Part shown: positions 18,895 through 19,930 of the stretch, one piece after another
How the letters are laid out: each line of letters opens with the position of its first letter
Position numbering within the stretch: position 1 is the first letter of the stretch
IMG/VR virus record: IMGVR_UViG_2529292726_000018
Location: 1 to 29,089 of that record
DNA: 29,089 nt
Source: a virus
Taxonomy: Duplodnaviria > Heunggongvirae > Uroviricota > Caudoviricetes
Strand: one strand, 5' to 3'
The notes under the pieces: generated by a model
What the model was told of the DNA's origin: nothing
Databases searched by the model: none
The model's input: only the letters and a program-made list of their open reading frames with translations
Program-made: the position numbers and the translations under genes

Positions 18895-18917
18895 TAAAAA
18901 AGGGCCTCCAGCGGCCC
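18895..18917 (-). terminator. Intrinsic terminator-like hairpin between the AraC-family gene and the lysis cassette
   Basis: Minus-strand RNA forms GGGCC-(6 nt)-GGCCC followed by UUUUUUAUUUG. Further GC-rich hairpins lie at 18965-19020. Confidence 0.5.
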
Positions 18918-19051
18918 GTAAAAACACCCTGTCAAAGGCACCCGCAGATGCCTTTTGTGTGGTGTTATCTGATGTGATGTGCGCCGGGCGCGGCGCGGAT
19001 ATGAAAAAGGCCCGCCGCAGCGAGCCTGTTTTCAATGAGTGCAAAATTCAA

Positions 19052-19795
19052 TTATTCTTGAGTAACACTTAAACTCATCTCATTGAATGCAGCCATCCTG
19101 TAACCTGCCGGTGTAACACCAAAATAACTCCTGAATACGCTGATAAAATAAGATGTAAAATTATAGCCGCACTGAGCAGCGATTCTGTTGATGGCGCAAC
19201 GAGATTGATTCAACAGCATTGCTGCCATTCTCATTCTCTCTGTAAGCAACAACTCACTGAAACAGGTGCCTTCTTCTTTCAGTCTTTTTTTTAACAAACT
19301 TTCACTGATACATAACCGCGAAGACACATCTCTCAGAGTCCAGTTTGCTGCAATGTCCGTACGAAACAATGCACTAAGCCTGTCACTAATATTGCTAATA
19401 CACGCGGTCAGAAACGACGAAAACATCTTCTCTGATGAGAAAAACGCCAGACACGAAAAGGAAAGCATTTCCGCTAAATTGTCCGTATGAATCTTTTCCT
19501 CACAAAGATAATCAATCAGGATGCCCATCAATTCTGCCTTCGGAAAACTCACGCAAAGATATCGTGGTATTTGCCGGACTAAAACTACATCCTGTTTTTC
19601 GTCTCCACACAACAGGTAACGGCTAATTGTCGATTCACTGAGACTTATTCGCCGAAAACATTCCGAAAAGGGCAATAACGATCCAGCTCCCCCCCTGACA
19701 AGAAGTGCACTACCACTTTCAAGAGAGAGCTCTTTTCCTTCAAAGAGCACAACAAACGGGGAATGAACAAAAACAACAGAACAGGCTTCATTCAT
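19052..19795 (-). CDS. AraC/XylS-family transcriptional regulator (accessory gene)
   Basis: 248 aa from ATG 19795. C-terminal 100 aa is a typical AraC-type double HTH (…WTLRDVSSRLCISESLLKKRLKEEGTCFSELLLTERMRMAAMLLNQSRCAINRIAAQCGYNFTSYFISVFRSYFGVTPAGYR). The region is clearly AT-rich relative to its neighbours. Confidence 0.8.
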   Translation of the reverse strand: MNEACSVVFVHSPFVVLFEGKELSLESGSALLVRGGAGSLLPFSECFRRISLSESTISRYLLCGDEKQDVVLVRQIPRYLCVSFPKAELMGILIDYLCEEKIHTDNLAEMLSFSCLAFFSSEKMFSSFLTACISNISDRLSALFRTDIAANWTLRDVSSRLCISESLLKKRLKEEGTCFSELLLTERMRMAAMLLNQSRCAINRIAAQCGYNFTSYFISVFRSYFGVTPAGYRMAAFNEMSLSVTQE

Positions 19796-19906
19796 ATCAA
19801 TTGCCCTGACATTACTGGTCACAAGATAAGTATATATCGATTTACAAAAATACAAGCCGAAAGACCAGTATTCGCAACCACCAGCACGTTTTATGTTCTC
19901 TGCCGT

Positions 19907-19930
19907 TTTTCGGACATAAAAAACCCGCTC
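19907..19930 (-). terminator. Intrinsic terminator, candidate tR' after the Q-position gene
   Basis: Minus-strand RNA forms ACCCGC-CAUUGA-GCGGGU followed by UUUUUUAUG, about 95 nt downstream of the Q-like stop and upstream of the AraC-family start. Confidence 0.55.

Follow-up and report, generated by a model that had tools for sequence, protein, structure and literature searches.

How are the late genes of a lambdoid prophage switched on when the gene at the position of the Q antiterminator encodes a DUF1133 protein? We addressed this question in a 29,089-nucleotide stretch of viral DNA (IMG/VR record IMGVR_UViG_2529292726_000018, positions 1 to 29,089; hereafter the window), which is a Rac-like lambdoid prophage of Escherichia coli. 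The segment 18850-20100 is 100% identical to E. coli strain A17 (NZ_CP028757). Nearly all genes of the window, including all genes of the control region, lie on the minus strand. The initial annotation had proposed a lambda-type Q-dependent late operon here, and comparative analysis agreed with it, through homology of the protein to the Q protein of phage 21 (Q21), a conserved predicted promoter with a second −10-like hexamer, and a terminator with no open reading frame (ORF) between. The region is likely a Q-dependent late-gene cassette that works by processive antitermination of the phage 21 kind. Its layout is ordinary for a lambdoid prophage, and the DUF1133 subfamily of Q is experimentally unstudied as far as we found. 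The family is widespread in prophages of E. coli, Shigella, Salmonella, Klebsiella, and other Enterobacterales, and its RefSeq label is still "unknown function".

The Q-like gene sits between nin-region genes (DUF1367 and YbcO) and the lysis genes, as the lambdoid Q position requires. Its 180-residue product matched Pfam PF06576 (DUF1133) at E = 1e-107 and, at a borderline score, PF06530 (27.1 bits; cut-off 26). Of the Pfam families for Q proteins, PF06530 represents Q21, PF03589 lambda Q, and PF06323 Q82 (PMC9388147); neither of the latter two gave a Pfam match at E ≤ 0.01. With the single protein as the query, phmmer found Q21 in the PDB at a non-significant E-value of 0.27, and among 1.84 billion representative proteins it returned 68 matches, a narrow family that did not reach Q21. 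A family profile was needed to reach it. A family profile built from an alignment of ten diverse DUF1133 members (32-87% identity) matched the Q21 chains 6P18 and 6JNX in the PDB (hmmsearch, E = 1.2e-8), and all ten members matched PF06530, with a best E-value of 3.6e-12. In hhalign, residues 13-179 aligned with residues 5-153 of a phage-21-type Q (locus L162) at 96.7% probability (E = 3e-10). The window protein belongs to PHROG 753, "anti-termination protein Q-like", and one genomics paper labels DUF1133 as "Q antiterminator (HHPred)" (PMC8136144). These matches identify the DUF1133 protein as a genuine, divergent relative of phage 21 Q, and the Q-like character that the initial annotation had assigned to this gene is thereby upheld.

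The promoter was located by comparing relatives at two depths. The close set consisted of 80 IMG/VR loci with Q proteins 94-100% identical, from which 24 distinct variants were scored by column; the 85 nt past the stop codon are common to the 80 loci. Among the 24 variants, none of the six columns of the predicted −35 hexamer varied, one of six did so in the −10 hexamer, and all five varied in the 5-nt gap that follows it. The second −10-like hexamer, TA(A/T/C)GCT, varied at two of six columns, one of which is its third position, and 10 of the 17 spacer columns were invariant. In the window, this hexamer reads TAAGCT; it lies 5 nt past the −10 hexamer, at approximately −1 to +5 for a predicted start near 19993, and the next triplet is TCG.

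The wide set consisted of 54 loci, drawn from a single genome for each species, together with five phage records; Q identity fell as low as 31%, and the genera covered were Escherichia, Salmonella, Citrobacter, Klebsiella, Enterobacter, Serratia, Yersinia, Xenorhabdus, Proteus, Providencia, and Edwardsiella. A composite of TTGnnn, 16-18 nt, a −10 hexamer, 4-7 nt, and TAnGCT adjoined the gene end in about 47 of the 54 loci, and it exceeded the 99th percentile of the background from the same loci in 22 of 54. The distance from TTG to TAnGCT was constant irrespective of whether the TTG lay past the stop codon, coincided with that codon (the arrangement of the window), or fell within coding sequence where the gene is extended at its C-terminal end (Klebsiella type). 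Distant relatives carried canonical −10 hexamers at the same place. Examples of the composite come from Providencia (TTGACT-16-TATAGT-7-TATGCT), Serratia (TTGACT-16-TAAATT-4-TAAGCT), Yersinia (TTGACT-16-TATGAT-7-TAAGCT), and Rac-SA53 (TTGATT-17-TATCTT-5-TAAGAT). A TTnCSS..AAA motif in the spacer was common to the window and distant relatives, and judged from its sequence the spacer probably holds the Q-binding site. The initial annotation had suggested looking for −35/−10 elements and a pause-inducing element within 19931-20024. Comparison recovered candidates for them, including the second −10-like hexamer that is the hallmark of lambdoid pR' promoters, with the correction that the predicted −35 hexamer overlaps the Q stop codon and thus lies slightly outside that range.

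For reference, we fetched phage-21-type loci via the published Q-binding element (QBE) oligonucleotide; they read TTGACA-TCAT-TGAGCA-AA-TGAGCA-ACACT-ATTCGCA-TAAGCT-GCC. The phage 21 QBE has C:G pairs at −21 and −13 (PMC6606751). By these positions, the −10 element of the phage 21 late promoter pR' is AACACT, transcription starts at the A that precedes TAAGCT, and this hexamer spans +2 to +7. No other −10-like hexamer occurs in the initial transcribed region of phage 21, and TAAGCT is therefore very probably the sigma-dependent pause element of pR'21, although the hexamer itself is not printed in the papers. We also considered TAnGCT as a true extended −10 element. The TG motif that would precede it was seen in the window and in Klebsiella types but was missing in close variants, and no −35 element accompanied it; the pause-element reading was preferred.

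A different leader, TTGACT-18-TATATT without TAnGCT, was observed at four loci (L089, L090, L092, and L263:1150-1290). The DUF1133 genes before it in the first three are 81-89% identical to that of the window, and in another E. coli genome the same leader follows a 127-residue "antiterminator Q family protein". From their sequences, L089, L090, and L092 look like recombinant mismatches of a Q gene and its pR'.

Past the DUF1133 stop codon, a hairpin with a T-run followed at 40-115 nt in about 46 of 50 loci, with no ORF between. Close relatives carry at least three compensated versions of this tR'-like terminator at the same place, including AACCCGCC..GCGGGTT, AAAAACCGC..GCGGTTTTT, and GACCCCG..CGGGTTT. 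The predicted terminated RNA is about 75 nt in the window (19993 to about 19919) and mostly 38-107 nt in the family, where the terminator was callable; the central part of the leader differs between loci, both in sequence and in length. The terminator that the initial annotation had put at 19907-19930 proved to be real, in a register about 11 nt off, that range covering only the 3' arm and the tail. The promoter-sized gap it had described also exists, and measures 83 nt (20024-19942) from the Q stop codon rather than 94. Coordinates are collected in Table 1.

Table 1. Features of the control region and of the late operon, in order along the minus strand. dG, predicted folding free energy; z, z-score; PWM, position weight matrix; SD, Shine-Dalgarno sequence; HTH, helix-turn-helix.
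Feature	Coordinates	Strand	Details or basis
hok/sok (sok RNA)	22073-22243	-	Rfam RF01794, 101 bits
DUF1367 gene	21453-20854	-	nin-region gene
YbcO gene	20854-20564	-	nin-region gene
Q-like antiterminator gene, DUF1133, 180 aa	20567-20025 (stop TGA 20027-20025)	-	PF06576, PF06530
Predicted pR' -35, TTGATT	20028-20023	-	Overlaps Q stop TGA; invariant in 24 close variants
17-nt promoter spacer, candidate Q-binding element	20022-20006	-	CGCAT 20017-20013 and CGCTT 20008-20004, 9 bp apart
Predicted pR' -10, TTCAAT	20005-20000	-	Best PWM promoter in gap; T at position 2
Second -10-like hexamer TAAGCT, predicted sigma-70-dependent pause element	19994-19989	-	TAnGCT family consensus
Conserved transcribed block, possible 7-bp helix	19967-19991; arms 19991-19985 / 19973-19967, 11-nt loop	-	Variant columns, shuffles
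tR'-like terminator, end of Q module	19915-19941; stem 19941-19922, T6 19923-19918	-	AACCCGC/GCGGGTT, loop CATTGA; dG -11.2, z -2.6
AraC-family cargo gene, YdeO/GadX-like, 247 aa	19795-19052	-	Pfam HTH_18/HTH_AraC
Second terminator, strongest in window	19003-19027; hairpin 19027-19008	-	dG -20, z -4.9
9-bp hairpin without immediate T-run	18934-18955	-	dG -19.5, z -4.2
Third terminator, directly upstream of holin SD/ATG	18896-18917; GGGCC/GGCCC 18917-18902, T6 18901-18896	-	dG -11.6, z -2.1
First lysis gene, holin (Phage_holin_8)	18484-18876; ATG at 18876	-	Pfam; SD GGGAGG
Holin 2	18494-18219	-	Second lysis gene
M15 endolysin	18222-17839	-	Third lysis gene
Strong terminator-like hairpin past endolysin	17742-17775; hairpin 17775-17750	-	dG -18.4, z -4.1
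Terminator between head-morphogenesis and scaffold genes	10217-10242; 10242-10223 + T6	-	dG -13.8, z -3.4
Terminator-like hairpin after major head gene	8125-8144; GGGGC-UUCG-GCCCC 8144-8131 + ATTTTT	-	dG -11.1, z only -1.5
Terminator-like hairpin upstream of tape-measure gene	4428-4457; 4457-4434	-	Hairpin scan

Several observations weigh against this assignment. A consensus promoter scan found no site in the gap between Q and the terminator, because TTCAAT lacks an A at position 2; this A is nearly invariant in −10 elements, and the E. coli and Klebsiella lineages read TTNAAT. By PWM, TTGATT-17-TTCAAT ranked first in the gap, at only about the 90th percentile of random 141-nt pieces, and the composite of promoter and TAAGCT in the window scored 12.4 against a background 95th percentile of 12.6. 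As a single sequence the promoter is thus unremarkable, and the call therefore rests on the comparison of relatives. No TGAGCA-type QBE was found in 20028-19989, and the spacer held no clear repeat. On the protein side, the base-contacting residues R127 and R128 of helix H6 in Q21 align to E153 and K154 in the DUF1133 protein, which is also missing the long minor-groove loop L3 (between H5 and H6). Different DNA recognition is therefore expected, and the site is not readable by homology. An AlphaFold2 model built from 27 close sequences reached a predicted local distance difference test score of 55, too poor for a fold test, and was not used. In the literature searched, we found no experimental work on the DUF1133 family, only the HHpred-based label. 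Finally, the tR' hairpin also stands before the AraC cassette in loci with other Q types, so part of its conservation may reflect recombination.

Two side observations concern this hairpin. The sequence AACCCGCCATTGAGCGGGTT (19922-19941) is identical in Edwardsiella phage EPP-1 (approximately L085:2626-2645), whose Q is only 31% identical, and hairpins of the form ACCCGCC-N6-GCGGGT recur at module joints.

Among the alternatives, the one that survives best treats the promoter-to-terminator unit as chiefly a small RNA (sRNA) gene, like StxS or IsrK, with a trans or cis role in the lysogen. It is compatible with antitermination, and we regard it as possible, if rather unlikely. It draws on the 22 nt after TAnGCT (19988-19967), where only 4 of 22 columns vary in the 24 close variants. 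This block is recognisable across the family, and its conservation goes far beyond what a pause element by itself would require. A possible helix begins in the 3' half of the pause hexamer (p = 0.037 in the window), and helices of different sequence recur at the same place in Klebsiella (GCTCGG/CTGAGC), Proteus (TGCTGTG/CACAGTA), Pluralibacter (CTTCGC/GCGGAG), and Rac-SA53 (AGATGC/GCATCT), amounting to five lineages, each at p of about 0.02-0.05 against shuffles. The identical terminator hairpin in E. coli and Edwardsiella loci also favors an RNA with its own function, as do the precedents StxS and IsrK (PMC7547250, PMC4825925). Against it stand the variable leader middle and the 38-107 nt range of lengths, as well as the weak folding: the minimum free energy (MFE) z-score in the window is −0.9 to −1.6, z-scores were strong only for the Klebsiella type, and in the Serratia and Yersinia types interruptions break up the helix. 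RNAalifold returned no consensus structure for the MAFFT leader alignment, because the 3' arms do not line up from one lineage to the next. Rfam at the gathering threshold reported only sok in the window, and at E ≤ 5 in 18800-20150 it gave only chance-level matches (Trp leader at E = 0.37, rsmX, and others), with IsrK and StxS-type RNAs unmatched. Judged from sequence, the block may be what is left of a terminator, an element that stabilises the 5' end, a portion of an sRNA, or an aid to pausing or loading. We also considered a leader peptide with attenuation. The 8-codon ORF at 19955-19929 on the minus strand (MNFDTTRH) ends in the tR' loop; it is absent in close variants and has no SD, and was rejected.

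The same block raises a second alternative, namely that DUF1133 forms a mechanistically distinct branch of the Q21 superfamily with another Q-binding site, in which the transcribed block of about 30 nt, with its helix at the place of the phage 21 terminator stem, aids the loading or locking of Q on the transcript. The sequences make this conceivable, and we consider it doubtful. One form of it, a possibility, is that the 5' hairpin would act as a stopper behind the Q nozzle instead of being a passive remnant or an RNA stabiliser.

It is improbable that the 19941-19918 hairpin is mainly an insulating or boundary terminator, marking the end of the early-right operon and/or serving as the upstream terminator of a mobile AraC cassette, with DUF1133 not acting and the late genes driven from elsewhere. 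The hairpin family does occur before the AraC cassette beside unrelated Q genes and away from any pR' (L262 and L263), and the promoter score in the single sequence is not significant. However, the hairpin holds the same place behind DUF1133 genes with other cargo or none, the conserved unit of promoter and second hexamer always precedes it without an intervening ORF, and no alternative promoter was found before the holin, either in the consensus scan or on inspection of 19000-18877. Least probable of all is that the DUF1133 protein is a promoter-specific activator and the terminators are ordinary operon punctuation: the Q21 fold does resemble sigma R4 bound to an anti-sigma (PMC6606751), and the defect at position 2 of the predicted −10 element in this lineage might make an activator necessary, but this would leave unexplained both the terminator that in about 46 of 50 loci follows the promoter immediately, without an intervening gene, and the second −10-like hexamer common with phage 21, and the near-consensus promoters of distant relatives need no activator.

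In the reading we prefer, antitermination would carry the polymerase through further terminators downstream. Behind the endolysin follow ParB-like and terminase genes, portal, head morphogenesis, scaffold, major head, and tail genes. This 19-kb late operon contains seven or eight terminators that point in the direction of its genes. Of the eight best elements of hairpin plus T-run, seven fall in the intergenic 11.8% of the window, and all are co-oriented with the flanking genes; this distribution is well beyond chance. Those that the initial annotation had named before the lysis cassette (18895-18917), before the scaffold gene (10215-10241), and after the capsid gene (8121-8144) are all present, on the coding strand, intergenic, and co-oriented, the last being weak when taken alone. 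Absent from its list were the strongest one (19027-19008) and the hairpins at 18955-18934, 17775-17750, and 4457-4434. The hairpin at 18955-18934 is kept in L046, L263, and phiP27-type lysis modules. For annotation, many terminators within a late operon are to be expected and need not mark operon ends.

Two further observations concern these elements. The hairpin at 17742-17775 falls inside small unassigned ORFs after the endolysin (RefSeq gives 17797-17606 as a 63-residue hypothetical protein); unless these ORFs are spurious, the terminator must lie within a gene. A perfect TTGACA at 18928-18933 on the minus strand, between the 18955 hairpin and the 18917 terminator, has no −10 element at a usable distance and is probably not a promoter.

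We infer promoter activity, the start site, the pause, Q binding, and antitermination from the sequence, and propose the following order of events. The late promoter pR' would lie at the Q stop codon, and transcription would begin near 19993. Sigma-70 would re-bind TAAGCT, causing RNA polymerase to pause approximately 15-20 nt downstream. In the lysogen, without Q, pR' would fire and its transcripts would end at 19941-19918, yielding the RNA of about 75 nt. Late in induction, the DUF1133 Q protein would be made and would load onto the paused complex. The Q-loaded polymerase would then read through 19941-19918, the cargo gene, and the terminators at 19027, 18917, 17775, 10242, 8144, and 4457, and continue into the lysis, head, and tail genes. 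The AraC gene would be insulated in the lysogen from pR' and from the lysis genes, and co-induced with the late genes. This proposal provides DUF1133 with a testable function and a map of cis elements.

The tR' T-run also marks where cargo is exchanged. Similarity of phage records with the same Q module stops at about 19920, within the T-run, and most of the 366 matching E. coli genomes share only 20100-19920. At least nine unrelated continuations follow the same module of Q, pR', and tR'; L052, a close relative of this module, carries tRNA genes in the slot, as Stx phages do. In the "empty" L046, a second terminator lies at most 14 nt past tR', and is followed by a hairpin, a third terminator, and the holin. 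Alignment with L046 reveals about 895 nt of inserted DNA in the window (about 19923 to 19028), which is visibly AT-rich and has terminators on both sides. By absence from a colinear relative, different composition, and flanking terminators, the inserted AraC cassette qualifies as a moron on sequence grounds. Other E. coli genomes (L262 and L263) carry the same cassette between a Q gene of another type and the holin, where it is preceded by an ACCCGCC-N6-GCGGGT terminator, and the lysis cassette from 18968 on is 95% identical to that of phiP27. The initial annotation had expected the terminators to delimit accessory insertions that carry their own. The AraC insertion is indeed terminator-flanked, but the terminators belong to the backbone, being adjacent in L046. 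They look like shared joints for cassette exchange and not simply like parts brought by each cassette, because the insertion lies between terminators that are adjacent in L046 and the same hairpin family flanks the cassette elsewhere. The cargo junction can thus be pinned to the tR' T-run, where toxins, tRNAs, and regulators appear to be swapped in.

The best full-length match of the cargo protein was YdeO (NCBIfam NF007407), at 148 bits against an equivalog cut-off of 348, and GadX was matched in the PDB at E = 2e-22. By these scores the protein is related to YdeO and GadX and is not a YdeO equivalog. A candidate for the gene's own promoter, TTGTAT-15-TATACT at 19855-19829, was weak and not significant by PWM. 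The regulator, whose induction would coincide with lysis, could change how the host controls acid resistance or virulence.

Upstream of the nin-like genes, we observed a hok/mok-type toxin ORF (approximately 21700-22100) with its sok antisense RNA. A KilA-N domain gene (22598-23401) lies on the opposite, plus strand and has its own plus-strand terminator at 23377-23401 with a 10-bp stem. Q modules of the E. coli type also appeared in a "Candidatus Nanosynbacter" metagenome-assembled genome and a "Vagococcus" assembly (L093 and L100), and in the "Actinobacillus phage" record PP818812.1 (about 92% identity over 59% of a 5.5-kb query). These occurrences are probably due to contamination or wrong host labels.

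One of the closest known systems is phage 21. Its Q protein is homologous over nearly the full length, and both proteins have the W-x-x-G-x-L-x-x-W-G-x-W motif and the HTH helices, although identity is only about 21% and the DUF1133 protein has an insertion of about 30 residues past the WGxW motif. The gene position is the same; in both, the promoter (predicted in the window) starts at or near the Q stop codon, an identical TAAGCT follows just past the start, and a terminator comes next, with variable cargo (tRNAs and others) right after the T-run. The 17-nt spacer of the window takes the place of the two TGAGCA QBE subsites. These direct repeats are not present in the window, and are a feature of phage 21 itself rather than of its whole family. 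In phage 21, the hairpin starting inside TAAGCT is the terminator (dG −20.2, followed by U7, giving an RNA of about 46 nt), whereas the helix at that place in the window has no U-run, and its terminator lies about 30 nt further on, giving the RNA of about 75 nt. As structures of Q21 exist, this relationship offers a comparison of how a Q protein may change DNA specificity while the pause hexamer stays the same.

The same logic operates in lambda, where a late promoter beside Q fires constitutively, yields a short terminated RNA, and is followed by processive read-through of all downstream terminators. In addition, lambda requires a further −35-like element and makes a 6S RNA of 194 nt. Its −10-like pause element occupies +1 to +6 and is followed by a G/C-rich discriminator (PMC5001585); the predicted placement of TAAGCT abutting the start resembles this arrangement. 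Lambda Q (PF03589) is a separate, non-homologous protein family (PMC9388147). Short RNAs that run from pR' to tR' have been described in lambda, 21, 82, and P22, in Stx phages (StxS), and in Gifsy-1 (IsrK) (PMC7547250, PMC4825925).

Cargo between Q and the lysis genes likewise has precedent (PMC7547250, PMC4825925, PMC9732031). The Stx phages 933W, Sp5, and phiP27 use the same slot, which in phiP27 holds ileZ-argO-stx2e upstream of the 95%-identical lysis cassette. The cargo of the window is a transcription factor and not a toxin, and no similarity to StxS was detected. In Gifsy-1, the Q-like gene antQ is followed by a short terminated RNA, IsrK, and then by cargo before the lysis genes (PMC4825925). 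We considered AntQ as a possible DUF1133 member and did not retain it: tblastn gave no Gifsy record among the 32 phage records that matched this protein, from a collection whose Gifsy content was unchecked, and the IsrK family of Rfam was unmatched. Prophage-borne YdeO/GadX-like AraC regulators of E. coli are described in PMC10057817 and PMC10877973, and AppY of DLP12 and Psr and PatE of enterohaemorrhagic E. coli prophages are, like the cargo gene of the window, low-GC accessory genes of the AraC family.

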